From assembly GCA_017881075.1 (NCBI GenBank), contig JADGRH010000003.1:64682-128681 (forward strand): a stretch of 64,000 nt of DNA, in the 5' to 3' direction. This document shows positions 3,738 through 48,693 of the stretch, piece after piece (the first letter of the stretch is position 1; each line of letters opens with the position of its first letter). The position numbers and the translations under genes are program-made. Under the pieces are notes generated by a model. That model was not told the origin of the DNA. It searched no databases and saw only the letters and a list, made by a program, of their open reading frames with translations. Origin of the DNA: Minisyncoccota bacterium (GTDB lineage: Bacteria; Patescibacteriota; Minisyncoccia; Phycocordibacterales; CAJBRS01).

Positions 3738-4505
3738 ATGGCTCAAAATTTATATCAGTTTTTAAAAAACATAGGCATTTCTCAAAAAGAGGTAAATGTT
3801 TACATCTATCTTTTGTCGGTGGAATCAGCTCTGCCAATGGAAATTGCTAAGGAGACCAATCTTAAGAGGTCCACTGTATATGTAATCCTCGAACTCCTAA
3901 AAGAGAAAGGGTTAGTGCGCGAGGTAGAGCGAGGCAAACGCTCCGCCTATATCTCGGAAGACCCGGAAAGAATCAGATTTCTTTTGGAACAACTTCGACT
4001 TCAGACGGAAAATAGTATTAAGGGATTGAATATCATAATTCCTCAACTGAAAGCCACTCTTCGAAAAGAAGGGGAGCCGCCACTGATCAGATTCTTTGAA
4101 GGAGAAAAAGCGGTTCAGGTCTCAATGGAGGAATTGGCGGACAATCCTAAATTTAGAAAAGAGTTAAATTATGATGTTTTTCCACTTGAGCTAATCTATA
4201 AATTATTCCAGAGAAAGAATTTGCGAAAATATATTAATCTTCGCATTCATAACAATGAAAACTTCAAAATCCTCTATACATCAGATGAAGGAGGGTTAAC
4301 CAACGCGGAGACACACGGACAAGAAGCGATCAAGATTGACCAAAAAGAATTTCCTCTATCATGTGACATCGCCATCTTTGAAGATGAGGTTAGAATTCAT
4401 ATGTTGGGTAAACCTATTTACGGCATATTGATTAAAAACTTGGAATTGGCCCAGACTCTCACTAGTATTATCAAATTGGCAATAAAAGGAGCCAAGGTAA
4501 ATTAG
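3738..4505 (+). CDS. TrmB-family winged-helix transcriptional regulator
   Basis: N-terminal wHTH (LKNIGISQKEVNVYIYLL...MEIAKETNLKRSTVYVILELLKEKGLV) with a long C-terminal domain, the typical TrmB architecture. Confidence 0.7.
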   Translation: MAQNLYQFLKNIGISQKEVNVYIYLLSVESALPMEIAKETNLKRSTVYVILELLKEKGLVREVERGKRSAYISEDPERIRFLLEQLRLQTENSIKGLNIIIPQLKATLRKEGEPPLIRFFEGEKAVQVSMEELADNPKFRKELNYDVFPLELIYKLFQRKNLRKYINLRIHNNENFKILYTSDEGGLTNAETHGQEAIKIDQKEFPLSCDIAIFEDEVRIHMLGKPIYGILIKNLELAQTLTSIIKLAIKGAKVN

Positions 4506-4858: not shown

Positions 4859-6139
4859 ATGAGTATACGTTTCGTTATCTCAGTTATGTTGGTTGGCCTT
4901 TACATGGCCATATCAATCCTGTATCCAGTAGCCCAAGGCCCGATCGAAGGAAAGATCGCGGCCAGTATGGTCCAAGATAGTGATGCGTCTTATGCAGCGG
5001 CTCACGCCCTGCTCACGACGCATTCGCCGATAACCATTATCGGTTGGGCAGTGTTCATAGCATTGCTCGTCATCTGGGTGCCAGTTTTACGGCGCGCCCT
5101 CAAGCGCCCCACTAAAACGGCAGCGACATTTCTCGGGTGTATCGCCTTTTTGGCGACCATTCTCACCACGGGATGTGTGGGACCTTATAAGGTAGAGAAG
5201 TTCGAGACCATCGAATCAAACGAGACGGCCTTCGTCGTTCCCTTGGAGGGTGCGACGCTCGCCAATCAAGCGAAGTTCATGTCTATCGACTATCTCAATT
5301 CGCCTGAAGTGAAAGTGGCGACCAAGCGGATCACTATTCCGCAACGGCAACGCGACACAGGACGGGTGGCCGGTAATTACGAATGGATTGACACCGTTCG
5401 CGTCATCAAGGTAAACCGGGCGCCTATCACCAGACAGTGGGTGAAGGCCTCAACACAAGGCACTTCTAAATCCGACGAGGCCATCGAGGTGGAGTCTAAA
5501 GAGTCAATCGACTTCTACACCGGAGCGGTCTGCAGCGGGTTTATCGCTGAAGAGGATGCGGCAAGGTTCCTCTATTATTTCGCCGGGAAACCTTTAAGCG
5601 AAGTGATGGACGAGAACGTACGCGGGTATGTTCAAAACCTGATGTGGGTGGAGTTTGGTACGCGGGACTTGACCGCTGCCAAAGAGGCCAAGAAAGAGAT
5701 CATGGATGCGGTTTCCAAATCGACGAAGGAGTTCTACTCCAAGCAAGGGATAACGATCTCTTACGTCGGTGGAGCTGAAGGTCTGACCTACAAGGATCCA
5801 AAGATCCAAGAATCCATCAACTCGGCCTTCATCGCCGAGAATGACCGCAAAGTGGCGGATCAGGAGAATCAGGCCCAAACGATTAGGAATACCAAATTGG
5901 TTTCCATCGCTACAGCACAGCGTCAGGCGGCTGAAGAGTTCGCCAAAGCGCAGAATGCCATGATTGCCAAGACCCAGCTCGAGATCCAAATGAAGCAGGC
6001 AGACGCCATGCTGGAGATCGCGCATAACTCGCACGGCATCAGCATCCAACCGGGTGCGATCTTGTCTGAAGGGTCGCCCTTCCTGTTTGGCCTGGATAAG
6101 GTCACGGGAGCTCGGCCGCCGGTCACTGCAAATAAGTAA
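4859..6139 (+). CDS. membrane protein with SPFH/band-7-like domain
   Basis: Good SD (aaggag) upstream. N-terminal TM helices, a central beta-rich region, and a C-terminal Ala/Gln/Glu-rich helix (QRQAAEEFAKAQNAMIAKTQLEIQMKQ) typical of SPFH proteins. GC-rich relative to flanks. Confidence 0.55.
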   Translation: MSIRFVISVMLVGLYMAISILYPVAQGPIEGKIAASMVQDSDASYAAAHALLTTHSPITIIGWAVFIALLVIWVPVLRRALKRPTKTAATFLGCIAFLATILTTGCVGPYKVEKFETIESNETAFVVPLEGATLANQAKFMSIDYLNSPEVKVATKRITIPQRQRDTGRVAGNYEWIDTVRVIKVNRAPITRQWVKASTQGTSKSDEAIEVESKESIDFYTGAVCSGFIAEEDAARFLYYFAGKPLSEVMDENVRGYVQNLMWVEFGTRDLTAAKEAKKEIMDAVSKSTKEFYSKQGITISYVGGAEGLTYKDPKIQESINSAFIAENDRKVADQENQAQTIRNTKLVSIATAQRQAAEEFAKAQNAMIAKTQLEIQMKQADAMLEIAHNSHGISIQPGAILSEGSPFLFGLDKVTGARPPVTANK

Positions 6140-6168
6140 CGACCTTTAAAACGTAGAGAGAAATCTCG

Positions 6169-6210
6169 GCGCGTGGTCCGGTTGAGCAATCAACCCCCAC
6201 GCGCTTTTTT
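6169..6210 (+). terminator. intrinsic terminator after the SPFH-like gene
   Basis: Stem gcgcgtgg (6169-6176) / ccacgcgc (6197-6204) followed by tttttt. Confidence 0.7.
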
Positions 6211-6312
6211 AATTTAACTTTTCTTTATGGGAGATTCATCACCCATTTATATATTTAAGTAATAGCAGAAAGATTTGCAAGGATTTGGGTATTCCTGAAG
6301 AAGATTAAAATT

Positions 6313-6346
6313 AAAAAATCCGGCCGAAGCATTTGTCGGCCGGATT
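6313..6346 (-). terminator. conserved hairpin terminator, copy 1 of 3
   Basis: aaaaaatccggcc-N12-ggccggatt. 9-bp stem, 12-nt loop, U-run on the minus strand; 15 nt after the receiver gene stop. Confidence 0.8.
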
Positions 6347-6361
6347 ATCAAAACCATTCGC

Positions 6362-6733
6362 TTAGCTCACGGATGATTGTGTGAGCTGGAGATCAAGAAG
6401 TCGGATTACTGTGTCGGGCACGTCGTCCTTGCGCGATGCATGACTACATCCGGCCGACATCATCAGTTGTTGGACCTTAAAGCATCCCGCCGCTGTTACT
6501 ATCGGCATGGCAGACTTCTGGCGCAATTCGCGAATGAAAGGTTCAGTATTATAGGTATAGCCCGGAACACAGCCATCAACGACTACCAGATCAAAAGGAT
6601 CCGAGCGGTCCAGGATTTTCTGGGCACCCTCCAAGTCAAACGCTTGGTTGATAACAACCTCGTATCTGCAAAGTTTCTTCTCCCAGTCGAGCTGGTACTG
6701 CGGGTTATCCTCTACAAGTAAGATTTTTTTCAT
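6362..6733 (-). CDS. single-domain response-regulator receiver protein (CheY-like)
   Basis: MKKILLVEDN..., putative phospho-acceptor in FDLVVVDG, T in PIVTAAG, K in ASRKDD. No output domain. Confidence 0.75.
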   Translation of the reverse strand: MKKILLVEDNPQYQLDWEKKLCRYEVVINQAFDLEGAQKILDRSDPFDLVVVDGCVPGYTYNTEPFIRELRQKSAMPIVTAAGCFKVQQLMMSAGCSHASRKDDVPDTVIRLLDLQLTQSSVS

Positions 6734-6793
6734 AATTCTAAATCGGATACTACATTAAATGCCAAAAAAATCAAAATCAGGTAGTATTAACCC

Positions 6794-7705
6794 ATGGATC
6801 AATCTCAAAACTCCACTAGAGAATATTCTGCCATTAGCCCAACATCTCGCAGCTCATTTTGGATGAAAACTTTCACCGACATTCCTTACGTGCGGGAAAT
6901 ATACGACGAGCTGGAAAAAGGGAAGCAGAGTGGAGCGGAAAGCAAAATCAGGGATTACGGAATCAATCATGTTGGTCTCTCAAGTATTGCTCCATATTTT
7001 GAGGCGAGATACTTAATCATTAATAGATTATTGAAAGAAGTTGGAGCGACACAGATTATTGAATTAGCTTCCGGCCTCACTCCTCGGGGTCTTGAGCTTA
7101 CCAAAGATCCAAATATCACTTTCATCGAATTAGACCTCCCTGATGTAATCGAAGAGAAAAAGAAAATAGTGGAAAATATTATAAGAGAGCATAAAATCGG
7201 CGATCGTAACAATTTGTATCTGGAAGCAGGAAGCGCCCTGGAAGAAGCGGATATCATGAAAGCCGCCTCTCATTTTGATGAAAAGAAAGAGATCGCTATT
7301 ATTAATGAAGGATTACTTCGCTATCTGAAAAGAGACGAACAGGCAAAAATGGCTCAGGCGATCTTACCCGTGCTTCAAAAATTCGGGGGAGTATGGATCA
7401 CCCCTGATATTGGCATCAGAGATAAAATGCTGGCAGGACAAGCGAAATTGTCGCCGATATTCATAGACAGAACTAAAAAGTTGGAAAAAATGACGGGCGC
7501 TGGAAATTTTTCCGACAACCTTTTCGCCGATGCTGCAGAAGCCAAGGCAATCTATGAAAAACTAGGATTTGAGATAGAGATGCATACTTACTCTGAAGTA
7601 TCCGATCAACTCGTTTCACCCACTAAACTCGGTCAACCAAAAGAGATTACAGACTCACTTATGGAATGGAGCAAGGTCTTTGTGATGCACCCAAAGACCA
7701 AATAA
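6794..7705 (+). CDS. class I SAM-dependent methyltransferase (LCMT/TcmP-like)
   Basis: Motif I-like IIELASGLTPRG and acidic post-I FIELDLPDV; length and layout match leucine-carboxyl/O-methyltransferase-like proteins. Confidence 0.65.
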   Translation: MDQSQNSTREYSAISPTSRSSFWMKTFTDIPYVREIYDELEKGKQSGAESKIRDYGINHVGLSSIAPYFEARYLIINRLLKEVGATQIIELASGLTPRGLELTKDPNITFIELDLPDVIEEKKKIVENIIREHKIGDRNNLYLEAGSALEEADIMKAASHFDEKKEIAIINEGLLRYLKRDEQAKMAQAILPVLQKFGGVWITPDIGIRDKMLAGQAKLSPIFIDRTKKLEKMTGAGNFSDNLFADAAEAKAIYEKLGFEIEMHTYSEVSDQLVSPTKLGQPKEITDSLMEWSKVFVMHPKTK

Positions 7706-7737
7706 AAAATCCGGCCAGAGAATTCACGGGCCGGATT
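7704..7737 (-). terminator. conserved hairpin terminator, copy 2 of 3
   Basis: aaaaaatccggcc-N12-ggccggatt. The stem overlaps the TAA stop of 7736..8089; also sits just after the convergent methyltransferase gene. Confidence 0.8.
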
Positions 7738-8089
7738 ACGAAAAACTTCTGAGTCCTAACAGCATGATGATGGTATTTACCAAATCGTCAGGATGAGCCT
7801 CATGGGTGCATCGAAAATAATTCAACATAATCTGTCGGATACCGGGACTTTTGTCCACAACCACAATGGGTCCATTGCAATGAGGAGGAAGACTCTTCAG
7901 AAGTGCTCCGGTGTTGAACGTTTTTGACCCAACACAAGTTTCGACGGCTACAAGGTCATAACGATCAGATTCCTCAATCGCGAATCTAACGTCGTAGGCG
8001 TAGCTTGCGCTGACGTCATATTCCTCCAACCTCCTTTGCCACTCGGTCGCCAGGTCATTGTCATTAGTCACAATTAAGATATTCTTCAT
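7736..8089 (-). CDS. receiver-like single-domain protein, degenerate (Glu at phospho-acceptor position)
   Basis: Paralog of 6362..6733 and 9503..9856. YDLVAVETCVG replaces DLVVVDG; conserved C-T-H motif near the C-terminus. Confidence 0.65.
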   Translation of the reverse strand: MKNILIVTNDNDLATEWQRRLEEYDVSASYAYDVRFAIEESDRYDLVAVETCVGSKTFNTGALLKSLPPHCNGPIVVVDKSPGIRQIMLNYFRCTHEAHPDDLVNTIIMLLGLRSFS

Positions 8090-8219
8090 TAGTCTTTCCT
8101 CATATTACACAGCCTTCCTTGGAAATCAAGGTAGAAATGGAAGTTATACCGAAAATAAAAAAGCGGCCACCCCTTTCGAAGTGCCGCTTGTTTGAACGCG
8201 ATGCGCGCTAAGATACCGC

Positions 8220-9350
8220 TTACTCTCTTAGCATCAGCGAGACCGTGTCGGGGAACGTTGTTGTGTAATCCCCGAAGATCTGCATGCCGAAACTTTTCGG
8301 CGTCACTTTGTCCCAAGTGATCTTCTCGTTGGCACCGGCGCCGGAATATGATCCGACACTCATTGGGGATGTGTGGTACTCGACGAAACCTCCCCATGGT
8401 CTGATGAGCTTGTCCTGTAGACGATGTGATTCGTCTGCGAGGAAGTCATGCTTGAGGTGGGGGACAACGCAAATGGCGAAGTCTCCAGCAATGCCGCCAC
8501 CAAGCTGGACGAAAGCCAGCGGAGTTTTGCGGGTCACGTCCATGTAGAATTCCGCGAGCGCATGCATGTACGAAATCCCCGGAAGGACCACGTTCATGTC
8601 GATCGGCGCCTCGATCTTGTAATTTTTCAAGAACCAATGGTCGCCCTTGTAGCACGCCTGAGCAAAAATATTGCCCATCGTAGAATCTTCGAATCCAGGA
8701 ACGAAGAGCGGAATGTCGAGTTTTGCAGCTTTGCGAAGCCAACATTCTTCCGCATTGGCCGTCGGATCTTTTCTGATCAGATCGTGCTTGAACAGGTGAT
8801 AGAAATACTGATGCCAGAGTTTCCGCTCCTTATTTACTCCGGCGATCCTCCATTGCTTCATGAGCTTGGGCAGGATGACTCTGACCGATTCGTCTTCCGG
8901 CAGGATCGTGTCTGTGATTCGGCGGAAACGAAGGCGGCGAAGCTCCTCTTCCTGTTTGGGCGTCAAGGATTGATAGTTGGGAATGTAGACATAATACTGA
9001 TTTGCTGAGAATCGGTAGGCGCTTTCTTCCATGTTCGCGCCGGTAACTGACATTCCGGCGATGTATCCGGCGTCCATCAGTCTGGTGATGGGTACACCGA
9101 GCTGGAATGATGATCCGGCTCCGGCCATTGATAAGAATATCTTGCCGCCCTCTTCGCAGAAATCTCGAAGCCAAAGGCCGGCATCGACAGTTCTTCCTCC
9201 GTTGCAATGGCGCTTGTTCTGGACCAGTGAATTTGAGACGGGGCTGTCTGCGCTGGGGGTATAACGTCGTTCTCCCACAGTGATCATCTTGCGAAGCCCA
9301 GGACTGAGCTGAGCCATTTTTTGTTTAAGGGACATGATTTGATTTGACAT
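8220..9350 (-). CDS. deoxyhypusine synthase-like family protein
   Basis: Layout and motifs parallel DHS: SMAGAGSS...VTGANMEE, QLGGGIAGDF (cf. ILGGGVVKHH), GSYSGAGANEKITWDKV (cf. GSDSGARPDEAVSWGKI). GC-rich: 31 G+C in 8221-8280. Confidence 0.65.
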   Translation of the reverse strand: MSNQIMSLKQKMAQLSPGLRKMITVGERRYTPSADSPVSNSLVQNKRHCNGGRTVDAGLWLRDFCEEGGKIFLSMAGAGSSFQLGVPITRLMDAGYIAGMSVTGANMEESAYRFSANQYYVYIPNYQSLTPKQEEELRRLRFRRITDTILPEDESVRVILPKLMKQWRIAGVNKERKLWHQYFYHLFKHDLIRKDPTANAEECWLRKAAKLDIPLFVPGFEDSTMGNIFAQACYKGDHWFLKNYKIEAPIDMNVVLPGISYMHALAEFYMDVTRKTPLAFVQLGGGIAGDFAICVVPHLKHDFLADESHRLQDKLIRPWGGFVEYHTSPMSVGSYSGAGANEKITWDKVTPKSFGMQIFGDYTTTFPDTVSLMLRE

Positions 9351-9470
9351 AGTGCTTTCCTCGGTTTGTGTTGTTCTTCTCTTCTGAAATCATATTACTT
9401 AAATAGGGGATTAGTTCAAGTTATGGGTTTTCCAAATTTTGAGCGGGTTTTTCACGAAATTGAAGAAAAT

Positions 9471-9504
9471 AAAAAATCCGGCCTGTGAATCGGTCGGCCG
9501 GATT
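9471..9504 (-). terminator. conserved hairpin terminator, copy 3 of 3
   Basis: aaaaaatccggcc-N12-ggccggatt; the stem overlaps the TAA stop of 9503..9856. Confidence 0.8.
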
Positions 9505-9856
9505 AAGAATAGCGCTTCAATTCAAGAAGAGTGACGATGAGAGACACCAACAAGTCCGGATGCGCGCCATGTGTGCATCCAAAATCTCTAATCATTGCCT
9601 GACGGATCTCCGAACTCTCGTCCACGATCACTATTGGTCCATTAGAATGGGCAGGGAGACTCTTGAGGAGTGGGCCCGTATTGAATGTCTTGGAGCCAAC
9701 GCAGGTCTCTACCGCCACGAGGTCATAACGGTCTTGATTGGAAACCGCATAACTTACGTCATAGGCGTAGCTTGCGTTGACTGCGTATTCATCCAGTCTA
9801 TTCCGCCAATCGGACAGATGGTCATTGTTAGTAGACACAATTAGGATAAACTTCAT
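9503..9856 (-). CDS. receiver-like single-domain protein, degenerate (Glu at phospho-acceptor position)
   Basis: Close paralog of 7736..8089 (shared YDLVAVETCVGSKTFNTG.LLKSLP, GCTH.AHPD). Confidence 0.65.
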   Translation of the reverse strand: MKFILIVSTNNDHLSDWRNRLDEYAVNASYAYDVSYAVSNQDRYDLVAVETCVGSKTFNTGPLLKSLPAHSNGPIVIVDESSEIRQAMIRDFGCTHGAHPDLLVSLIVTLLELKRYS

Positions 9857-9954
9857 ATTTCTATTTCCGATACTACATCAAATATCCCAAAAATCAATTT
9901 TTCCTGGACACCCCTTGAAATTGAAGAAAAAACAAAATCGGGTAGTATTACCTC

Positions 9955-10353
9955 ATGAACATACCAGCTTGGTATTCACAATTAATTAAACCTTCTTGGG
10001 CGCCACCATCGTGGCTCTTCGGGCCGGTATGGACATTTCTGTATGTCTTGATCGCCATTTCATTTGGCAAAGTATTTTTGATGGCATGGAAGAAAGAGAT
10101 TGCCCTCATGGTGGCCTTGCCGTTTTTACTCAATCTAATATTCAACTTCGCTTTCACACCCCTCCAATTTGTCCTCAAAAGCAACCTCCTCGCCGCCCTC
10201 GACATCCTTCTAGTTCTCGGCACTCTCATCTGGGCCATGCTGGCTATCTATCCCTATGCCAGATGGATCGCCTATATCCAAGTCCCATACCTCCTCTGGG
10301 TCCTCTTCGCCACCATTCTCCAATTAACGATTACGTATCTCAATCTAAATTAA
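9955..10353 (+). CDS. tspO: TspO/MBR family tryptophan-rich sensory protein
   Basis: WYSQLIKPSWAPPSWLFGPVWTFLY signature and multi-TM profile. Somewhat short at 132 aa. Confidence 0.85.
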   Translation: MNIPAWYSQLIKPSWAPPSWLFGPVWTFLYVLIAISFGKVFLMAWKKEIALMVALPFLLNLIFNFAFTPLQFVLKSNLLAALDILLVLGTLIWAMLAIYPYARWIAYIQVPYLLWVLFATILQLTITYLNLN

Positions 10354-10390
10354 ACCTGAACAAAAATTGAAGATTTAATGAATTTGTGGG

Positions 10391-10750
10391 ATGATTTTTA
10401 ATATGACTAAGATTGAGGATCTGATTACAAGAGTGACTGCATTTAGAGATGATAGAGACTGGAAACAGTTCCATAATCCCAAAGATAATGCTATCGGATT
10501 AGTTCTGGAAGCCTCGGAGGTTTTAGAGCTATTCCAGTGGAAAAATAAAGAAGAAATTGACAAGTATATAAAATCACATAGCGAAAATATTTCTGACGAA
10601 CTAGCGGATGTTATGTATTGGGTTTTATTAATGTCACATGACTTGAATATTGATATCGGAAAGGCTATAGAAAAGAAACTTAAGAAAACAGAAGAAAAAT
10701 ACCCTATAGAAAAATCCAAAGGTAATCATAAGAAGTACACAGAACTTTAA
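10391..10750 (+). CDS. MazG-like nucleotide pyrophosphohydrolase
   Basis: All-alpha MazG/dCTPase-like pattern: FRDDRDWKQFHNPKD, EASEVLELFQW (ExxE), ELADVMYWVL (ExxD), KKLKKTEEKYP. Confidence 0.8.
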   Translation: MIFNMTKIEDLITRVTAFRDDRDWKQFHNPKDNAIGLVLEASEVLELFQWKNKEEIDKYIKSHSENISDELADVMYWVLLMSHDLNIDIGKAIEKKLKKTEEKYPIEKSKGNHKKYTEL

Positions 10751-10754
10751 TCTT

Positions 10755-12608
10755 ATGATTCTATATAAAAATAATCTAAAGGATTTTAAAATTCACGTTG
10801 ATACTAATCAGATCGGGGATTTAATCGAGAAATCTTTTAGAGAAAAATTAGGGCACAAAGTTGCTCCAAATGAAAAAAGGTCATGGACTAATTCTATGTC
10901 GTTTATGGAGAAAATAGTCAGAAGGGCTGATCTTTCGGATACTTGCGGAGTTATGTTGGAATATATTATTCCAAACACTTCTAACAGAATCGACTTTTTA
11001 ATTTCCGGGGAAGACGAGAAAGGGAACAAGAATTTTATAATTATTGAATTGAAACAATGGGAAACATCAGAATCTACTGATAGAGATGGTGTAGTAAGGA
11101 CTTTTGTGGGAGGAGGAGTACGCGAAACTACGCACCCATCTTACCAGGCCCATTCCTATAAATTGTTTTTAAGTGACTACAATGAAAATATTGATTCTGG
11201 CATTCTTTCACCATACGCTTGCGCGTATCTGCATAATTATAAAGAGCGGAGTCCGGAGCCTCTAAAGGCTCAAATATATGAATCTGTTATTAAGGTAGCG
11301 CCAGTTTATTTTAAGGACGATTATGAAAAATTGGAGCAGTTTTTGCATAATTATGTTAGGTTCGGAAAAGGAGAAGAAATCTTGTATCAAATTGAAGCCG
11401 GCAGAATAAAACCTAGCAAAAAACTTATTGAGCATATTCAAAAAATGTATGAAGGAAACCAGGAATTTATATTACTGGATGAGCAAAAGGTGGCATATGA
11501 GACAGCTCGATCTGTAGCAAAGAAAGTTAAAGAAAAATCTGTCGTAATTATAAAAGGTGGTCCAGGGACGGGTAAATCTGTAATCTCAATGAATTTATTG
11601 GGAAGCCTATTAAAGGATGAACTTAATGTAAACTTTATTGCCCCTAACTCTGCCTTTAGAGAAGTAATGATTCATAGATTAGCAAGGAAGGAGACTAAAT
11701 TAAGGTTAAAAAACTTGTTTAAAGGCTCTGCTGGTTTTGTAAATGCCAAGAAAGACACATTTGATACTTTAATAGTGGATGAAGCACATAGATTAAAGAA
11801 AAAAGGTGCTTATCAATACAAGGGGATAAATCAGATAGAAGATATCGTTAATTCTGCTAGAACGTCTATCTTTTTTGTCGATGATAATCAGATGATTCGT
11901 CCAGACGATATAGGTTCAGTTCAGGAGATTAAAAGAGTGGCTGATAAAAATAAGGCAAGAATTTATGAAATAGAATTAGTCGCCCAATTTAGGTGTGCTG
12001 GGGCAGAAGGTTATCTTAATTGGCTCGACAATACATTACAGATTAAAGAGACAGCGAATTTTGATGGATGGGAGCAAAAAGATTTTGAGTTTAAGATTTT
12101 TAATGATCCTAACGACTTAAGGAAAATGATAAAAGAAAAGCATGATAAAGGATTTAATGCTCGAATTCTTGCTGGCTATGCTTGGAAGTGGACAAGTGTA
12201 GGGGAGGGCAATAAAAGTGGAGAAGTTGAAGATGTCTTAATCCCCGAATTCGATTTCAAAATGCCGTGGAATGCTCGACAAATTGGAACAACTTGGGCGG
12301 TTGATCCAAAAGGTATTGATCAGGCAGGATGCATTCATACTTCACAAGGTCTGGAATTTGACTACGTTGGAGTTTTGGTAGGCAATGATTTACGTTTTGA
12401 TTCCAAAAAACTTGACTACCATGCTCACTGGGTATCCTACAAAGATACGACGGGGAAAAAAGGGCTGAAAAATAACCCGGAAGAATTAACTAAATTAGTA
12501 AAAAATATCTACAAGGTTCTTATGAGCAGGGGTATGAAGGGATGCTATGTTTATTTTACTGACAAAGAAATGGAGAGATATTTTAAATCACGCTTAGGTA
12601 TCAAATAA
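10755..12608 (+). CDS. DUF2075-type ATPase/helicase-like protein with N-terminal PD-(D/E)xK-like nuclease motif
   Basis: Starts 4 nt after the MazG stop. N-terminus IDFLISG...FIIIELKQW (D...ExK). Walker A GGPGTGKSV, Walker B LIVDEAHRL. C-terminus HTSQGLEFDYVGVLVG and VLMSRGMKGCYVY as in DUF2075 proteins. Confidence 0.8.
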   Translation: MILYKNNLKDFKIHVDTNQIGDLIEKSFREKLGHKVAPNEKRSWTNSMSFMEKIVRRADLSDTCGVMLEYIIPNTSNRIDFLISGEDEKGNKNFIIIELKQWETSESTDRDGVVRTFVGGGVRETTHPSYQAHSYKLFLSDYNENIDSGILSPYACAYLHNYKERSPEPLKAQIYESVIKVAPVYFKDDYEKLEQFLHNYVRFGKGEEILYQIEAGRIKPSKKLIEHIQKMYEGNQEFILLDEQKVAYETARSVAKKVKEKSVVIIKGGPGTGKSVISMNLLGSLLKDELNVNFIAPNSAFREVMIHRLARKETKLRLKNLFKGSAGFVNAKKDTFDTLIVDEAHRLKKKGAYQYKGINQIEDIVNSARTSIFFVDDNQMIRPDDIGSVQEIKRVADKNKARIYEIELVAQFRCAGAEGYLNWLDNTLQIKETANFDGWEQKDFEFKIFNDPNDLRKMIKEKHDKGFNARILAGYAWKWTSVGEGNKSGEVEDVLIPEFDFKMPWNARQIGTTWAVDPKGIDQAGCIHTSQGLEFDYVGVLVGNDLRFDSKKLDYHAHWVSYKDTTGKKGLKNNPEELTKLVKNIYKVLMSRGMKGCYVYFTDKEMERYFKSRLGIK

Positions 12609-12658
12609 TTTATCTTTATTTTAGCGTTGCTTCATGATACACATGGTAGGTTGTCGTC

Positions 12659-12820
12659 ATGAAGAAACAAAAGATCAAAGATAGTGACAACGCCTATTTA
12701 ATAAGCAGTAACAACTATGAAGACGATAATTGCCCCATCTGCAATCTAATGAGGCGATGTGAAATAGAGGAAAGAGAACCCACCTCACAAGAGATTAAAG
12801 AGGTGATGAAATTTAAATGA
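12659..12820 (+). CDS. possible 53-aa small protein
   Basis: ATG..TGA ORF below the track cutoff (MKKQKIKDSDNAYLISSNNYEDDNCPICNLMRRCEIEE...). No SD and no homology recognised. Confidence 0.2.
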   Translation: MKKQKIKDSDNAYLISSNNYEDDNCPICNLMRRCEIEEREPTSQEIKEVMKFK

Positions 12821-12907
12821 TCCTATTTATGCACGGCCTTTATCTAAAAAATGGCCAATGGACCAAAGAGAGAGCAGTAAAAATATCTGCGTATCATTTC
12901 ACTTATG

Positions 12908-12935
12908 GATAATCCGGCCTGCTCTGCCACGCTTG
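12908..12935. repeat. left inverted repeat of candidate invertible segment
   Basis: gataatccggcctgctctgccAcgcttg; its reverse complement occurs at 13317-13344 with 1 mismatch (core 21 bp perfect). Confidence 0.85.
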
Positions 12936-13286
12936 TATTGCCCTCTACTTTTTTTATGGCATACTTAAAAAAGAAATCCATGACAGACCTAATCTGATCT
13001 TTAAATATAAACCCTATTTTGCAGGTATGAAGAGACAATAAAGCATCGATTAAAAAATAATATGACCAATAAATATAGCAATAATCTTGTTACATAGAAT
13101 TTCAAATTTACTTAAAATATGGCTCTAATCAAGAACTAATTAAGATATGCACAGCTTATCCACTGGTAAGCTATTTACAAAACTGCTAGATTATGATACA
13201 TTAAGAGAGGAATATTTCTTTTTCCCCTCTTGCTGATTATAATAAGCTTTTCTTTCATAATAGGAAAAATAATATTAGCTAAATAC

Positions 13287-13315
13287 TTGACTCCAAAAAT
13301 TTTGGAGAGTATTAT
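13287..13315 (+). promoter_or_regulatory. sigma70-type promoter facing the 13360 operon, inside the IR-bounded segment
   Basis: TTGACT (13287-13292), 17-nt spacer, TATTAT (13310-13315). The spacer contains the palindrome ccaaaaattttgg. The -10 ends 1 nt before the right IR. Confidence 0.55.
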
Positions 13316-13316
13316 G

Positions 13317-13344
13317 CAAGCGCGGCAGAGCAGGCCGGATTATC
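13317..13344. repeat. right inverted repeat of candidate invertible segment
   Basis: caagcgCggcagagcaggccggattatc, the reverse complement of 12908-12935. Confidence 0.85.
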
Positions 13345-13359
13345 AATAAATTAAATTAT

Positions 13360-13761
13360 ATGACCAACGACAAATCTTTTTTGGAGGATCTCTATACTGA
13401 CAGTGGGGGATTCGACCGCGAACGGGTAGTGCGGGTGCTCCAAACCATACTAACCATTCAGCGGGGCGACCATAAAGTCTTCTTTAAAAAAGAGGCAACA
13501 CTAGAAGCTGCGGACAAAATTTTGGCTTATGCGTTAGTAAAAAAGCTTTTAAAGACAGAGGGGGTAACTGAAACGAGTAGTGTCTCGGGAAAGGAACTGA
13601 AGAAGCAAACGGGTGTAAAGTCCGGGACGGTCGATTTTACAATTAAAAAACTTAAAGAGGAAGATGGTCTGCTTGTTGGCAGCGGTAGCAATTATGAAAT
13701 ACCAGCACACAAAGTTGAAGACATCTTAGAGCGTCTTGAAAAATGCGCTTCCAAAAAATAA
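13360..13761 (+). CDS. hypothetical protein, C-terminal winged-helix-like region (operon gene 1)
   Basis: 133-aa ORF. SGKELKKQTGVKSGTVDFTIKKLKEEDGLLVGSGSNYEI reads as helix-turn-helix plus wing (inference). Confidence 0.6.
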   Translation: MTNDKSFLEDLYTDSGGFDRERVVRVLQTILTIQRGDHKVFFKKEATLEAADKILAYALVKKLLKTEGVTETSSVSGKELKKQTGVKSGTVDFTIKKLKEEDGLLVGSGSNYEIPAHKVEDILERLEKCASKK

Positions 13762-13765
13762 ATCT

Positions 13766-14206
13766 ATGGAAAATAACATAAAAAAAATACTCGGAGAAAT
13801 ACTCACATCCATAAAGAGCCTTGAAAAACGAGTTACTCTCATAGAAAGCAAGACACCGAGCATGAGTACACCATCACATGATCTTCCCATTGCCTCGAAG
13901 AAGATGTCGATAAAGGAGTTCCTAATTGATCGCTCTCCAGCAAATGGAGTACAAACAACTCTCGCGGTCGCATATTATCTAGAAAAATATGACAAGATCT
14001 CGCCATTTAATGCCAGTGACATAGAGAAAGCATTTCGTTCCGCTAAGGAACCAGTGCCCAACAATATCAATGATAAAGCAAATATGTGTATTAAAAATGG
14101 TCATTTAATGGAAGGAGAGGATAAGAAAGACAATATGAAAGCGTGGGTAGTCACTCGAAGCGGAGAACAATACGTTCAGGAAAAATTTGATCGTTATAGT
14201 CATTAA
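13766..14206 (+). CDS. hypothetical protein (operon gene 2)
   Basis: ORF-track start 13736 overlaps gene 1. ATG at 13766 (MENNIKKILGE...) gives a 4-nt gap. N-terminal coiled coil; C-terminal ...CIKNGHLMEG...KAWVVTRSGEQYV is wHTH-like. Confidence 0.6.
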   Translation: MENNIKKILGEILTSIKSLEKRVTLIESKTPSMSTPSHDLPIASKKMSIKEFLIDRSPANGVQTTLAVAYYLEKYDKISPFNASDIEKAFRSAKEPVPNNINDKANMCIKNGHLMEGEDKKDNMKAWVVTRSGEQYVQEKFDRYSH

Positions 14207-14235
14207 AAATAAAATTATTCACTAATATAAATATT

Positions 14236-14784
14236 ATGTCTGAAGCAGAAATAGTAGAAATCGTAGGGAAAATTGTTACTGCACTCACTCCTCTTTCTCA
14301 TGAGGAACGACAGAGGGCGGTGCAAGCGTCTTTAAATGTATTTGGTGAATCCATGCTCAGGTCTACACAAAGAAAAGACGAACTCAATGAAATTCCCTCT
14401 GCATTTAGTGAACGCGCGCGGATATGGATTAAACAGAACGAGCTTTCTTTGGAAAATTTAGAACAAATTTTTCATATTACTGATACTGGAGCAGAATTGA
14501 TTATTCAAGAAGTGCCGGGAGGAAAGGATAACAAACCCAGGGTGCTAAATGTGTATGTTCTTTCTGGCGTAGCTTCCCTACTCACCTCAGAAAATTCTAA
14601 TTTCGACGACAAAGTTGCAAGAACCATATGTGAATCATTTGGATGTTACGATCCAACAAATCACACTAAATACCTAAAGAAAAGTAAATTCTTTACAGGA
14701 TCCAAAAAAACAGGATGGACCTTGACTGCTCAGGGTTTAAAACATGCAGCCATGTTAGTTAGAGAACTGAGTAAGCCCCAATAG
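14236..14784 (+). CDS. hypothetical protein (operon gene 3)
   Basis: 182-aa ORF. C-terminus ...KFFTGSKKTGWTLTAQGLKHAAMLVREL is wHTH-wing-like; no known family recognised. Confidence 0.6.
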   Translation: MSEAEIVEIVGKIVTALTPLSHEERQRAVQASLNVFGESMLRSTQRKDELNEIPSAFSERARIWIKQNELSLENLEQIFHITDTGAELIIQEVPGGKDNKPRVLNVYVLSGVASLLTSENSNFDDKVARTICESFGCYDPTNHTKYLKKSKFFTGSKKTGWTLTAQGLKHAAMLVRELSKPQ

Positions 14785-14786
14785 AT

Positions 14787-15527
14787 ATGATTTTCACATT
14801 TAAAAATATTCCGATCAATCTTTCTGAAAAATTGGTTGAGGAATACTTGGAAATAAAGAAACGCCATTCAATGAGTGATTGGGGCCCAAGTCAATTAAAA
14901 GGCGGTAGATTTGCAGAAGCTATGTTACGCATTTTCCAACATTTGCTCGGTATTTCTATTACACCATTTGGGACCAACATTCCAAACAAAGACCGTATTT
15001 TAAATGCTGTAAAAATTCACCCGTCATTGGATGACCACATTCGTCAAAAAGTAGCACCTCTTATAAGACTTCTTCTAGATTTTCGTAATAATCGAGATGT
15101 AGCACACCTCGGAGGATTCAATGCAAATAGCATGGATACTCTTTTTGTGATGACAACAGCGACATGGATTTTGTGTGAACTGATCCGTGTTTATGGAGGG
15201 CAAAGTATGGACACCGCTCAAAAACTAGTAGACTCACTTTCCGTTAAAGAGTATCCAGTGCTAATGGAGTTCGAAGGAGAGCTCTTTATTACTCGACACA
15301 ATCTCAACGCAGAACAAGAAGTGCTAATATTTTTGTATAAAAATCGTAAAGCAGGCTACAATTTTTTGTCTTCAAAGACAAAGGACAGCAATTCTTCACG
15401 TTTTAAGAAAATTTTAGAGAAAATGGTTGCGGTAAAGTTCATTGGCAGCAAGGCAAATCAGTACTTTATCATGCCTCGTGGAATCGAGCGTGTAGAAAAA
15501 GAACGCTTATTGATCTATTCAAACTAG
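14787..15527 (+). CDS. hypothetical protein with HEPN-like Rx6H motif and C-terminal wHTH-like region (operon gene 4)
   Basis: Starts 2 nt after the gene 3 stop. LLLDFRNNRDVAHLGG (R100..H107, nt 15084-15107) lies in an all-helical N-terminal half and resembles the HEPN RNxxxxAH motif. C-terminus KFIGSKANQYFIMPRGIERV. Confidence 0.6.
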   Translation: MIFTFKNIPINLSEKLVEEYLEIKKRHSMSDWGPSQLKGGRFAEAMLRIFQHLLGISITPFGTNIPNKDRILNAVKIHPSLDDHIRQKVAPLIRLLLDFRNNRDVAHLGGFNANSMDTLFVMTTATWILCELIRVYGGQSMDTAQKLVDSLSVKEYPVLMEFEGELFITRHNLNAEQEVLIFLYKNRKAGYNFLSSKTKDSNSSRFKKILEKMVAVKFIGSKANQYFIMPRGIERVEKERLLIYSN

Positions 15528-15612
15528 GAATCAACAAGGCCAAGGCTGTTTTTTATATCTATTTCATCTTTTCTTCATAAATTTTTCATATTTAAAATGT
15601 TATGATGTGTGA

Positions 15613-16083
15613 ATGCAAAAGGACTTTACCTTTCAATTAATAAAGGGAAAAATCAGCGAAACTATATTTGATCAGATGTTTCGAGAAGCAGGGGAGTTTA
15701 CAGTTATCCCCTTTGGTTATGAAGCTTTAGTCCCGGAAATTGCTCAGCTTGCTCGTTCATTAGAACGCAAGGAAGTTCTGGACTCAATTAGGAATAGTCC
15801 TGATTTTGCACTGGTCTCTCATAGTCAGAAAAAGGTATTTCTAGTTGAAGTGAAATATAGGTCGCATTTACACGAAGATGACGTGTTAAATATTGCTCAG
15901 ATGGTTCACGACAGATGGAAACTAGCGTGGTTGTTCATTGCTACTCCGGAAGGATTCTATTTTGATAGTTGCTCGGATGTCTTAAATACTAAGACCATTA
16001 ATAAACTTAAACCAACATGGATCAATGCCGAACTCCAGGAAAAGTATTTAGCAGTAATGAATAAGTTTCAAGTTAACCATTAA
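15613..16083 (+). CDS. PD-(D/E)xK restriction-endonuclease-fold protein (putative)
   Basis: SPDFALVSHSQKKVFLVEVKYRS matches D-x(n)-E-x-K core spacing. Extended -10 (tgttatgat) upstream. Confidence 0.55.
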   Translation: MQKDFTFQLIKGKISETIFDQMFREAGEFTVIPFGYEALVPEIAQLARSLERKEVLDSIRNSPDFALVSHSQKKVFLVEVKYRSHLHEDDVLNIAQMVHDRWKLAWLFIATPEGFYFDSCSDVLNTKTINKLKPTWINAELQEKYLAVMNKFQVNH

Positions 16084-16102
16084 GTAGAGGTAAGAATTTC
16101 TT

Positions 16103-16861
16103 ATGTTCTCAGATCCAATCATTGAAAATTTAAAGTATTACGTTTATATACTTGTTGATCCGAGCAATAATAAGCCTTTTTATATTGGAAAAGGAATAGG
16201 AAATAGGGTTTTTTCCCATCTAAAAAATGAAATTGAAGACGAGTCTAAGATTTCATTAAAACAAGCGCTTATTAAAAATATTCAGGATCAAGGGAAAGAT
16301 GTTGAGATATACATAGTACGACACGGTTTAAATGAGAAGGAGGCATTTGAGATTGAGGCGACACTTATTGATTTTATCCAACTTAGAAATCTTACTAATG
16401 AAATAGTAGAGCACGACTATAAGGAAGAAATACCAGCTAAAAATCTGGCTAATATTGTTTTAGGACATCATGCGGGAGAAAGGGGGCTTATGACGCTAAA
16501 TGAAATACTCCAGTTGTATGGTGCAGAAGAGGCTAATATTACCGACCCAGTAATAATAATTAATATAAATCGAAAATATAAACGGGGCATGAGTCCGAAT
16601 GAAATATATGAAGCAACTCGAGCATCTTGGGTCATAAGCAAAGATAGGTCACAGAAAGCTAAATTTGTTCTCGCATCATTTCGTGGAATAGTAAAAGAAG
16701 TTTTCTATGTTAATCATTGGCAACAATCTAAGAATTCAAACCGCTTAGAATTTGAAGGAGGTGTTGCTCAGTTAGAGATTGCTGAAAAATATAGAAACAA
16801 AGCTATAACTAATTATTTGAAGACGGGGGCACAAAACCCAATTAGATACGTAAATTGTTAG
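16103..16861 (+). CDS. GIY-YIG nuclease-domain protein with uncharacterised C-terminal domain
   Basis: N-terminus YYVYILVD...KPFYIGKGIGNRVFSHL...EIEATLI fits GIY..YIG..R..H..E. Confidence 0.7.
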   Translation: MFSDPIIENLKYYVYILVDPSNNKPFYIGKGIGNRVFSHLKNEIEDESKISLKQALIKNIQDQGKDVEIYIVRHGLNEKEAFEIEATLIDFIQLRNLTNEIVEHDYKEEIPAKNLANIVLGHHAGERGLMTLNEILQLYGAEEANITDPVIIININRKYKRGMSPNEIYEATRASWVISKDRSQKAKFVLASFRGIVKEVFYVNHWQQSKNSNRLEFEGGVAQLEIAEKYRNKAITNYLKTGAQNPIRYVNC

Positions 16862-16963
16862 ATTAAATTGTACTATTCTCATGCCAGATGAATTGGAAAA
16901 TCAGGAATTAAAGGGGTCAGAAGTCATTTTTATATTAAATTTTATCTTTCTGTTGTATTAATC

Positions 16964-17107
16964 ATGGACTCCGATGAAATCTTAGAATTAGTTAAAGATG
17001 GCGTGATAGAGCCGGATCAGGTGGAAGATTTTCAGAATTTGGATGAGGAGATCCAGCAAATGGTGGCGGATGGGGATTTGGATGCAGATGAGGCGTTGAG
17101 TTTATAA
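16964..17107 (+). CDS. possible 47-aa strongly acidic small protein
   Basis: ATG..TAA ORF below the track cutoff (MDSDEILELVKDGVIEPDQVEDFQNLDEEIQQMVADGDLDADEALSL). Ends 50 nt before the NYN gene. Confidence 0.3.
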   Translation: MDSDEILELVKDGVIEPDQVEDFQNLDEEIQQMVADGDLDADEALSL

Positions 17108-17157
17108 ATTTATCTTTTCTTGACGGGGAATTCATCTGCAAGTTCTATTCTATATGA

Positions 17158-17661
17158 GTGGAAAATGAGTTTAAGAATCTTGCTTTTATAGATGGACAGA
17201 ATCTGTATATGGGTACGTCAAAGCGAGAGATCGATCCGTGGGAAATTAACCTTACCCGATTCTGTGTATATCTGGATGAAAAATACAATGTCGGTAATGC
17301 CTATTATTTTTTAGGATATGTGCAGGAGGCAAATCAAGAACTCTACGAAGAAATACAAAAGGCTGGTTTCTTGCTAGTATTTCGAGAACATAATCCAGCG
17401 ATGATTGGGAAGAAAAAAGGAAATGTGGATTCAGATATTGTCTTTCATGTCATGAAAAATCTATACAAGAAAGAGAATTTTAAAAAGATAATCCTTGTTT
17501 CTGGAGATGGTGACTATAAATTACTGGTTGATTTTTTGATAGCAGAGAACCGATTCGAGAAGATATTGTTTCCGAATAGAGAATTTGCGTCTTCTTTGTA
17601 CAAGAAACTCGGTTCGGAATATTTTGATTACTTAGAAAATATAAAGACATATATCACATAA
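17158..17661 (+). CDS. NYN-domain (LabA/PIN-like) ribonuclease
   Basis: AFIDGQNLY, GNVDSDIVFHVM and ILVSGDGDY are the NYN acidic motifs. GTG start as in the ORF track. Confidence 0.8.
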   Translation: MENEFKNLAFIDGQNLYMGTSKREIDPWEINLTRFCVYLDEKYNVGNAYYFLGYVQEANQELYEEIQKAGFLLVFREHNPAMIGKKKGNVDSDIVFHVMKNLYKKENFKKIILVSGDGDYKLLVDFLIAENRFEKILFPNREFASSLYKKLGSEYFDYLENIKTYIT

Positions 17662-26024: not shown

Positions 26025-26167
26025 AAATTGACGGCAAAAGAGCCCTATTTCCTAGGCTCTTTTGCCGTCGCCGTTTACATTTAAAAATTTTCATTTCCGT
26101 CTGAGGAATTTCCTTGCTTCGGTATAGAAATTCAGCTTTCATTGATGTAGAATGGTGGAATAAAGTC

Positions 26168-28828: not shown

Positions 28829-28921
28829 GATAGAGTGAAACCATTTTGCCTTTTTTAGCCTAGCGCCAGGTACATTTTTTGTCTACAATATAAAAACTAT
28901 TAATTTAACTTTTAACTACCC

Positions 28922-46432: not shown

Positions 46433-46570
46433 ATAGCCGAGAGCGTGCCTAAAGCATTACAGCTTGCTATAAGTAGCATAATGTGATAGGCTTAAAGTCT
46501 AGTTACAGTCTCCTTGGTGGCAACACTGAAATACTCTTGTAATAGAAGCTCGCCGCGTGCGGCATATCTT

Positions 46571-47104: not shown

Positions 47105-47209
47105 ATTTTATTAATTGGAGGCATGGTAAGATACTGGAACCCCTATTAGAAAACCCTGATACTGAAACTTGTCTTGTAATAGGCTAGCCTATCCAATGGC
47201 TTCATTGTT

Positions 47210-47791: not shown

Positions 47792-47844
47792 ATCCCGACA
47801 CTAGACAAACATTCTGTAGAAATCATTGGATGGTCTGGTTCTAG

Positions 47845-48608: not shown

Positions 48609-48693
48609 TTCCAATTCTCTCCCACTCGGGTCACGTCATTCGTTACTTTTTGTCTATTCACGAAGCGGTTGTTCCCTGTTAAAATAGGAGATT

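Follow-up and report, generated by a model that had tools for sequence, protein, structure and literature searches.

Stand-alone receiver domains of about 120 amino acids without an output domain, such as CheY, DivK and Spo0F, constitute the single-domain response regulators (PF00072), whose five catalytic positions are an acidic pair, the acceptor Asp, a Ser/Thr and a Lys. Receiver folds devoid of catalytic residues are known as pseudo-receivers or aspartate-less receivers (PsR/ALR), for example, FrzS (reviewed in PMC12632262 and PMC4395418). The replacements reported most often in PsRs are Asp-to-Glu, DD-to-Asn and the like (PMC12632262); Glu occupies the acceptor position in plant PRRs and fungal Rim15p (PMC12632262; PMC4395418), and a phosphomimetic Glu is thought to work via the conserved Thr and Lys (PMC12632262).

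The window analyzed here, a stretch of 64,000 nucleotides, belongs to a Patescibacteria-like chromosome; its best named LepA matches (75-85% identity) come from Pacebacteria, Parcubacteria and Paceibacterota. Three minus-strand ORFs of 117-123 amino acids lie within 3.5 kb of one another (table 1). An earlier note on this DNA had taken them for paralogs, and this they are: copies 2 and 3 share 65% of their protein residues and 69% of their nucleotides, and the copy 1 protein is 34% identical to each. The reading that we favor, with a probability of about 70%, is that they go back to old duplications, in place, of a single monocistronic unit in which a single-domain receiver (REC) gene has its own promoter and intrinsic terminator, and that copy 1 would still be phosphorylatable whereas copies 2 and 3 would be phosphorylation-independent. 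All three would fall into a Cys-bearing subfamily of the stand-alone response-regulator receivers that is specific to a lineage and seems typical of Patescibacteria/CPR genomes.

Table 1. Features of the receiver-gene locus, with positions counted along the window
Feature	Position	Strand	Description	Basis or value
Copy 1	6362..6733	-	123-aa stand-alone receiver domain, near-canonical for its family	ORF
Copy 2	7736..8089	-	117-aa predicted pseudo-receiver	ORF, family mapping
Copy 3	9503..9856	-	117-aa predicted pseudo-receiver, degenerate pattern as in copy 2	
Copy 1 terminator	6300..6346	-	hairpin 6317-6346, 11-bp stem, 8-nt loop, then TTTTTTAATTTT	-20.1 kcal/mol, z -5.0
Copy 2 terminator	7691..7737	-	hairpin 7708-7737, then TTTTTTATTT	-15.7 kcal/mol
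Copy 3 terminator	9458..9504	-	hairpin 9475-9504, then TTTTTTATTTTC	-15.7 kcal/mol, z -4.1
Proposed copy 1 promoter	6747..6774	-	TTGATT (6774-6769), 16-nt spacer, TAGTAT (6752-6747)	putative, from sequence
Proposed copy 2 promoter	8102..8129	-	TTGATT (8129-8124), 16-nt spacer, TAATAT (8107-8102)	putative
Proposed copy 3 promoter	9870..9897	-	TTGATT (9897-9892), 16-nt spacer, TAGTAT (9875-9870)	putative
LCM/TIGR00027-type SAM-dependent methyltransferase	6794..7705	+	divergent from copy 1, convergent on copy 2	
Methyltransferase leader and -10 box	6775..6793	+	AAAATCAGGTAGTATTAACCC, then ATG directly	
Deoxyhypusine-synthase/homospermidine-synthase-like enzyme	8220..9350	-	between copies 3 and 2, own promoter and terminator	
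TspO/MBR family membrane protein	9955..10353	+	divergent from copy 3	
TspO leader	9936..9954	+	AAAATCGGGTAGTATTACCTC, same as that of the methyltransferase, then ATG directly	
Direct repeat, left copy	9456..9478	.	copy 3 terminator T-tail read on the + strand	
Direct repeat, right copy	9917..9939	.	upstream of the copy 3 promoter	

The pattern AATCCGGCC-N12-GGCCGGATT occurs at exactly three sites in the window, one behind each receiver gene (0.00 expected from shuffles), and a looser search for CCGGCC-N3-20-GGCCGG returned the same three and no others. The hairpin with identical stems and differing 12-nt loops described earlier is thus real and, within this window, not a generic terminator. 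On the minus strand, the RNA hairpins fold at -15.7 to -20.1 kcal/mol, with UUUUUUAUUU behind them; with intrinsic terminators they share a 9-11 bp stem rich in G+C, a U6-A-U3-4 tract directly after it and a position at the 3' end of the gene. In copies 2 and 3, the stop codon (TAA) lies at the foot of the stem, as part of it; 2 nt separate the end of the methyltransferase gene from the copy 2 hairpin, which is not followed by a T-run on the plus strand. We read the hairpin as the Rho-independent terminator of each unit, a part of the favored reading that shares its probability. Unlike ordinary terminators, it has a loop of 8-12 nt, above the usual size, and a stem that has stayed the same across three paralogous units of ancient divergence: all 18 stem bases agree, the nine pairs display neither G-U/A-U intermediates nor compensatory changes, and no variation is seen at 31 of the 56 positions around the hairpin, whereas the loops are 42-50% and the neutral sites of the units 29-50% identical. 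The neutral probability of such stem identity is about 4e-6 when only copies 2 and 3 are compared and falls to about 5e-14 with copy 1 included.

Upstream of the genes, TTGATT-N16-TA(G/A)TAT boxes are kept with their spacing in the three copies and probably represent the promoter of the receiver units; that of copy 1 scores under the 9/12 threshold of our scan, and that of copy 2 lies directly downstream of the terminator (about 8150-8190) of the deoxyhypusine-synthase-like gene. The intergenic regions of copies 1 and 3 are 75-80% identical, against 47% for their coding sequences, in which synonymous sites are saturated. The homology proposed earlier for 6734-6796 and 9857-9957 resolves into two segments (6714-6774 vs 9837-9897 and 6745-6796 vs 9906-9957, 75% identity each), the copy 3 region being longer by about 38 nt. 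A direct repeat bracketing copy 3, GAAATTGAAGAAAANANAAAATC, also noticed earlier, is exact over 23 nt (0.04 expected), and its right copy may be what is left of the terminator tail of an upstream unit since lost. The methyltransferase gene looks leaderless. That stems and promoters are conserved far beyond neutral sites remains an oddity of the locus; a terminator or promoter with no further role would not usually be conserved to this degree.

Such constancy may suggest that the hairpin, and possibly the promoter region, is a sequence-specific cis-element beyond a terminator, either a palindromic site for a DNA-binding protein (with 21 bp between the half-site centres) or a hairpin acting in RNA stability or processing, that would co-regulate the three receiver genes along with the methyltransferase and TspO genes. 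The stem identity is what one would expect of such an element, as is a loop of constant length (12 nt, large for a terminator) and variable sequence, but stability selection alone can fix an all-G/C core, because a G-C to C-G swap takes two hits via a mismatch, and with three copies only, statistical power is low. Similarly, the conservation between copies 1 and 3 extends to an identical GGTAGTATTA.C.C-ATG leader before two unrelated genes, but TAGTAT-type -10 boxes near ATG are frequent in the window. Given, moreover, that the hairpin has all the features of an intrinsic terminator exactly at the 3' ends, that there is no candidate binding protein and that Rfam holds no matching family, we consider this alternative unlikely.

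The duplications are ancient: dS is 1.3 for copy 2 against copy 3, and synonymous sites are saturated in the comparisons with copy 1. The earlier description of a locally amplified cassette is therefore right about the conserved unit, which spans terminator, gene and promoter, but not about recent or mobile amplification: no recombinase or transposase was found among the scanned window ORFs of at least 120 amino acids, an attC-like core is absent, and the seven loci of relatives that we examined each carry a single copy, in seven different contexts, where the genes end in a hairpin and T-run that differ from genome to genome. The order of the duplication events can only be inferred: coding sequences group copies 2 and 3 against copy 1, whereas upstream similarity groups copies 1 and 3 against copy 2, so that a plain duplication history needs an extra event. 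For example, the deoxyhypusine-synthase-like gene may have been inserted upstream of copy 2. In metagenomes, the relatives of that gene reach an identity of only about 40%, and no close member of the receiver family was found alongside them, apart from one weak profile match (L143; E 7e-6, 24.6 bits).

The interleaving of the units with unrelated genes would be explained if they were mobile gene cassettes, integron- or MITE-like, with the hairpin as recombination site and the A-rich repeats as target or junction duplications. They are indeed compact and self-contained, with AAAATC.GG-like sequences at both ends, the 23-nt repeat around copy 3 and the same outward-facing leader on two unrelated neighbors; with integron cassettes they have in common a small promoter-proximal gene, a 3' imperfect palindrome and several repeats per locus. 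On the other hand, the hairpin contains no attC core sites (RYYYAAC/GTTRRRY), and no integrase, transposase or IntI was found among the scanned window ORFs of at least 120 amino acids, a few overlapping or likely spurious ORFs being left out. The units also differ from integron cassettes in having their own promoters, in lying among unrelated genes in both orientations and in being anciently diverged, and the copies do not all face their neighbors in the same way. Relatives, as single copies with unrelated terminators, do not fit mobility either; no related gene copy was found in viral contigs, and where the palindrome occurs in other genomes, it is not linked to the receiver family. Mobility is thus highly improbable.

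The proteins themselves belong to a family for which an exhaustive HMMER search retrieved 349 relatives (E <= 1e-3), mostly stand-alone (median length 121 aa), one of them labeled "response regulator [Candidatus Andersenbacteria]". As in single-domain response regulators, the genes are monocistronic, and the full catalytic set is present, in register with CheY, in 145 of 180 family domains; the family profile matches 57 solved receiver sequences, and PF00072 matches 24 of 32 aligned members. Unlike in these regulators, a near-invariant Cys stands at D+2 (158/180), and where beta5 canonically has G-A-x-D-(Y/F), the family has G-C-x-H-(E/Q) (G-C in 159/180) and hence no aromatic switch residue. 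The Cys-Ser/Thr-His oddity noted earlier is accordingly found in all three copies but is a family-wide signature rather than a peculiarity of theirs. Most members score below or near the Pfam threshold, and many score below it, including copy 1 (Response_reg, E 7e-4, 20.2 bits; cut-off 30.2 bits); copies 2 and 3 gave no Pfam match. The CheY-like fold put forward in the earlier note is borne out by structure prediction, with a (beta-alpha)5 AF2 model of copy 1 (pLDDT 76.5) whose best Foldseek matches are receiver domains, and high-confidence predictions for copies 2 and 3.

Mapping on CheY and the family also upheld the earlier account of the active sites. Copy 1 keeps four of the five residues (E8-D9, acceptor D53 and K102, with Ala at the Ser/Thr position) together with the Cys at D+2 and G-C-S-H, although, below the Pfam gathering score and without the Ser/Thr, it would by strict definition count as a pseudo-receiver too. 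Copies 2 and 3 keep none (T/S-N/T, Glu at the acceptor position, Asp and Pro; T-N, Glu, Asp and Pro in copy 2) and class as fully degenerate pseudo-receivers. Their changes are among the commonest PsR replacements (PMC12632262), and the best structural matches include FrzS. They depart from known PsRs in lacking all five residues, not one or two, in standing alone without fusion to an output domain, in adjoining a near-canonical paralog with which they have cis-elements in common and in keeping the Cys/His set of the subfamily. The phosphomimetic role suggested for their Glu is weakened because the Thr and Lys are replaced by Asp and Pro and the acidic pair is gone too. Duplication and degeneration recur in the family, as indicated by tandem-fused two-domain relatives, one canonical (P0004) and one degenerate (P0009, with Glu and then Ala at the acceptor positions).

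Having lost all catalytic residues and lacking any Pfam match, copies 2 and 3 might be taken for decaying duplicates on the way to becoming pseudogenes, with no function of their own. This is very hard to accept, given intact ORFs of family-typical length with putative promoter and terminator, confidently predicted folds, retention of the family-specific residues C55, N62-T63, P77, C96 and H98 (in copy 2, Cys at D+2, N-T, P and C-T-H) and a dN/dS of 0.19 at a dS of 1.3 (Fisher p 3e-11), that is, purifying selection; these features argue for functional pseudo-receivers. Equally implausible is another protein of flavodoxin-like fold outside signaling, such as a thiol enzyme or a metal-binding protein using the conserved Cys and His. 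The two near-invariant Cys and frequent His outside the receiver consensus, the low Pfam scores and the survival of Cys and His in copies 2 and 3 without the phospho-chemistry could evoke it, but the catalytic quintet prevails in the family, and the top structural neighbors are receiver domains throughout. Nor do the two Cys vary together (p 0.62); by receiver topology they sit at opposite ends of the sheet, and some members have the canonical Ala in place of the one at K-6, in the beta5 motif.

No histidine kinase was found among the scanned window ORFs of at least 120 amino acids or by phmmer, and a kinase lies within 6 kb at only one of the seven loci of relatives, another difference from known single-domain response regulators. 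The earlier observation that neither a kinase nor an output domain is nearby holds, so that "orphan" is apt as to a partner, but not as to homologs. With its acceptor Asp, metal-binding acidic pair and Lys kept, copy 1 most likely remains a phosphorylation-competent single-domain response regulator, and its phosphoryl groups would come from small-molecule phosphodonors or from a kinase whose gene lies elsewhere. Copies 2 and 3, which would have lost their catalytic residues after duplication but are under purifying selection and retain surface residues specific to the family, most likely act without phosphorylation and could serve as constitutive binders of, or competitors (decoys) for, the family's partner protein(s), or as heterodimer partners of copy 1. 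The locus thus encodes an ordinary kind of protein, yet in every copy the same putative promoter boxes have been retained along with an identical hairpin stem.

The three short minus-strand ORFs of this locus, referred to here as copies 1 to 3 (c1, c2, and c3), are paralogs. By coding sequence, c2 and c3 are the sister pair (65% protein and 69% nucleotide identity), and c1 is 34% identical to each of them. These ORFs, as well as the shared hairpin, the likeness between the c1 and c3 upstream regions, and the direct repeat described in the earlier note, were all confirmed at their sites (see table). The predicted structures of the three proteins display the (beta-alpha)5 CheY-like fold that defines a REC domain. 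In a Pfam scan, c1 scored 20.2 bits, short of the PF00072 gathering score of 30.2 bits, and c2 and c3 gave no PF00072 match. A word-indexed homolog search with the three sequences returned nothing beyond the proteins themselves; an exhaustive HMMER search was needed to recover the family, and it identified, among 1.84 billion representatives, 349 relatives at E ≤ 1e-3 and 25 at E ≤ 1e-10. These are short proteins (median length 121 aa; 135 aa or less in 144 of the 177 retrieved), one of which is labelled "response regulator [Candidatus Andersenbacteria]". PF00072 was matched by 24 of 32 aligned family members at E ≤ 0.01 (best 8e-12), and the family profile matched 57 solved receiver sequences. 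The membership of these three proteins in the PF00072 superfamily thus holds through transitive, profile-level evidence. That they are non-receiver enzymes is a reading we reject as highly improbable.

Coordinates of the features discussed, numbered along the window
Feature	Position	Strand	Remark
c1	6362-6733	-	ORF, 123 aa
c2	7736-8089	-	ORF, 117 aa
c3	9503-9856	-	ORF, 117 aa
Methyltransferase	6794-7705	+	LCM/TIGR00027-type
Deoxyhypusine-synthase-like gene	8220-9350	-	
TspO	9955-10353	+	
c1 upstream region	6734-6796		
c3 upstream region	9857-9957		
Direct repeat around c3	9456-9478 and 9917-9939		23 nt
T-tail likeness, first pair	6205-6225 / 6298-6318		
T-tail likeness, second pair	6202-6215 / 8152-8165		
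Starts with a -10-like box (examples)	1584, 6794, 9955, 18877(-), 25569, 30589, 48694		
Low-GC block	10391-17661		34-37% GC, GC3 31-32%
Class I ribonucleotide reductase	26114-29932		With ATP-cone
Sigma-70/PAS/PP2C group	46514-49476		
PurL (FGAR amidotransferase)	56779-60615		Large, single-chain

Profile alignment to CheY fixed the register of the family, its E/D-D pair corresponding to D12-D13 of CheY and its D53, S82, and K102 to D57, T87, and K109. All five catalytic residues are present in 145 of 180 family domains. A Cys lies two residues after the acceptor Asp (D+2) in 158/180, within a motif D-[GA]-C-[VL]-P-G..N-T, and a second Cys, six residues before the Lys (K-6), belongs to a G-C-x-H motif (Cys in 159/180 domains, His in 99/180, Tyr in 26/180) located where usual receivers show G-A-x-D-Y. 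Both Cys residues occur in 145 domains, a single one in 12 and 14, and neither in 2. A Cys–Cys pair forming a disulfide or a metal site is unsupported, because the two residues do not co-vary (p 0.62) and the K-6 Cys gives way to the canonical Ala in some members; receiver topology, moreover, puts the two positions at opposite ends of the sheet. Two relatives, P0004 (234 aa) and P0009 (269 aa), each consist of two family domains fused in tandem. The former is canonical; the latter is degenerate, with Glu at the acceptor position of its first domain, Ala at that of its second, and Phe in place of the D+2 Cys, and represents an independent degeneration inside the family. Duplication and degeneration are therefore recurrent in this family.

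With four of the five catalytic residues (DD, D, S/T, K) and Ala at the Ser/Thr position, c1 would rank as a near-canonical family member; by the strict definition of PMC12632262 it is a pseudo-receiver (PsR), Ser/Thr alone being missing, and not of the aspartate-less (ALR) type. Both c2 and c3 have none of the five (T/S-N/T, Glu, Asp, and Pro stand in their places) and qualify as ALR pseudo-receivers by the same definitions (PMC12632262). They nevertheless keep C55, N62-T63, P77, C96, and H98, and are the only two to do so among the three domains without any catalytic residue in the 180-domain sample. Their acceptor position is occupied by Glu, the commonest substitute for the acceptor Asp (PMC12632262). 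The earlier note had viewed this residue as "phosphomimetic", a reading that we downgrade as weak because a phosphomimetic Glu is thought to act via the conserved Thr and Lys (PMC12632262), which are both absent from c2 and c3. Comparison of c2 with c3 gave a dN of 0.26 and a dS of 1.32, that is a dN/dS of 0.19 (Fisher p 3e-11), and synonymous sites are saturated between c1 and either of them (third-position identity 29–36%). It follows that c2 and c3 are functional proteins, for which pseudogene decay is very unlikely, and that the duplications are ancient; the proposal of a local amplification, if meant as a recent event, is thus not borne out.

The palindrome AATCCGGCC-N12-GGCCGGATT lies 3' of each of the three ORFs, on its own strand, and occurs at three sites in 64 kb against 0.00 expected; a looser hairpin pattern recovered the same three sites in the window and no further ones. 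The three copies agree at all 18 stem bases and at 31 of 56 positions around the hairpin, and their 12-nt loops share 42–50% identity. RNA folding gives −15.7 to −20.1 kcal/mol for the hairpin, which is followed by UUUUUUAUUU, and the TAA stop codons of c2 and c3 form the base of the stem. A stable G+C-rich hairpin, then a U-tract, at the 3' end of a gene is the arrangement of an intrinsic terminator, and we predict this function here. In a scan of the first 40 kb of the window, the stems of the other terminator-like hairpins were unrelated to this one, so that the suggested specificity of the hairpin to the c1–c3 units stands within the window. A generic, REP-like repeat would be present in many intergenic copies, and this reading was rejected, all window copies being confined to these paralogs. 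An integron cassette was also rejected, as the sequence at the hairpin lacks the inverse-core and core sites of attC (RYYYAAC...GTTRRRY) and the scanned window ORFs of at least 120 aa include no integrase (IntI), making mobility of this kind most unlikely. An Rfam search of 5800–10500 returned nothing relevant. At least 120 unrelated genomes carry the palindrome and, among the matches listed, no genome has a gene of the receiver family or corresponds to the window. In one of them, the Bacillota MAG AS02xzSISU_21 (JAAYXB01), the form AATCCGGCC-N10-14-GGCCGGATT is found on at least eight contigs (L010, L025, L031, L068, L072, L094, L096, and L110), where it may be a REP-like repeat and is unconnected with both the receiver family and the window. 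We also observed that T-tails with unrelated stems, belonging to a gene for a 426-aa membrane protein, to c1, and to the deoxyhypusine-synthase-like gene, have TTTTTTA(A/T)TTT... in common; given this sharing, an extended T/A-rich tail seems to be typical of terminators here in general.

Upstream, all three copies carry TTGATT-N16-TA(G/A)TAT ending 12–13 nt before the ATG, a putative promoter whose boxes score under the threshold of the scan tool. Over 52–61 nt, the c1 and c3 upstream regions share 75% identity, and their intergenic module runs on to AAAATC.GGTAGTATTA.C.C, immediately before the start codon (ATG) of the divergent gene, which encodes the methyltransferase for c1 and TspO for c3. 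The divergent half is missing from c2, where the terminator of the deoxyhypusine-synthase-like gene takes its place. It is c1 and c3, instead of the coding-sequence sisters, that are most alike upstream (75–80% identity vs 47% for their coding sequences), and the history of the locus looks mosaic. The direct repeat around c3 is real (0.04 expected); on the minus strand, it resembles a second terminator T-tail located upstream of the promoter, which would be compatible with a former tandem array. Starts with a −10-like box (TATAAT, TAGTAT, or TAAAAT) 6–9 nt before the ATG and without a Shine-Dalgarno are frequent in the window, and leaderless or very short-leader mRNAs may therefore be common in this genome.

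The window is chromosomal (RNR, MurJ, LepA, LeuRS, TsaD, FtsZ/FtsA, and PurL are present). Its LepA shares 75–85% identity with proteins that carry the labels Candidatus Pacebacteria, Parcubacteria, or Paceibacterota and, together with the Andersenbacteria-labelled relative, this makes the organism most likely a member of Patescibacteria/CPR. The nearest relatives by LepA are P0186 and P0187, at 83–85% identity. A large single-chain PurL and a class I ribonucleotide reductase with an ATP-cone seem noteworthy for a genome whose LepA points to this group. We found no histidine kinase (HisKA, HATPase_c), Hpt, integrase, or transposase in the scanned window ORFs of at least 120 aa, and phmmer with a kinase from a relative's locus gave no window match. 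The earlier remark that no histidine kinase lies nearby thus held, and the three genes are orphan response regulators, with no adjacent partner kinase gene in the scanned ORFs. They are interleaved with genes for an LCM/TIGR00027-type methyltransferase, a deoxyhypusine-synthase-like enzyme, and TspO. The family gene of seven distinct loci in other genomes is single-copy and monocistronic-looking, has unrelated neighbors at the different loci, and ends with its own, distinct hairpin and T-run; a kinase lies within 6 kb in only one of the seven. A metagenome scan with the deoxyhypusine-synthase-like protein found no close syntenic relative (matches were about 40% identical) and no close family member beside its relatives, apart from one weak profile match (L143), and a scan of viral contigs found no family copies. 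A low-GC block that begins directly after TspO has the appearance of a foreign or defence island; it contains several ORFs lacking a Pfam match, as well as genes for a MazG-like protein, a Schlafen-group-3-like helicase (617 aa), a LEM-3-like GIY-YIG nuclease, and an NYN-domain protein. Apart from c1–c3, the signalling-type genes seen in the window are confined to one group, which encodes a sigma-70-family factor, a PAS-domain protein of 193 aa, and a PP2C-type phosphatase.

The explanation that best accounts for these data, to which we give a confidence of about 0.7, is the local duplication of a receiver unit, with one phosphorylatable copy, two phosphorylation-independent ones, and a hairpin that acts as terminator. 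An ancestral monocistronic unit, made of a promoter, a single-domain receiver gene, and an intrinsic terminator, would have been duplicated locally. One copy, predicted to be c1, would have stayed a phosphorylatable receiver, and the c2/c3 lineage would have lost the phospho-chemistry while keeping the fold and the family-specific residues. The latter two proteins would now act independently of phosphorylation, most likely as a constitutive binder, a competitor, or a heteromer partner for the same target(s), and the hairpin would terminate each unit. Conservation is much higher in the non-coding elements than at neutral coding sites, and the nine stem pairs show no compensatory change. Two overlapping promoters placed back to back, plus selection for an all-G/C stem of very high stability, may be enough to account for this. 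A rival explanation, which we consider rather unlikely, is that a sequence-specific factor holds these elements constant; the TrmB-like protein encoded at 3738–4505 would be one candidate regulator. More doubtful still is the idea that the hairpin and promoter/leader form a dedicated cis-module, tying a phosphorylatable Cys receiver and two dead D+2-Cys paralogs into a thiol/redox-responsive (or phosphorylation-independent), Patescibacteria-specific unit that co-controls TspO and the methyltransferase. If true, this unit would belong to an organism in which classical two-component wiring is almost absent.

These data do not overturn current views. Receivers that stand alone are already known, as are local families of paralogs and pseudo-receivers whose acceptor position is occupied by Glu. 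What is new is the Cys-at-D+2 subfamily, here documented, whose members Pfam thresholds largely miss, and the two extreme pseudo-receiver derivatives adjoining a near-canonical paralog. The practical value is modest, namely improved annotation and perhaps a model in which to study how decoy or adaptor pseudo-receivers arise. Pseudo-receivers are common, and their mode of action in bacteria is largely unknown (PMC12632262). The three genes lend themselves to a natural three-way comparison inside a single genome: one encodes a near-canonical receiver that stands alone, and the other two encode fully degenerate paralogs that are still under purifying selection, share the expression signals of the receiver, and retain the Cys/His set specific to the subfamily. 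Among the poorly understood Patescibacteria, this subfamily appears to be widespread.
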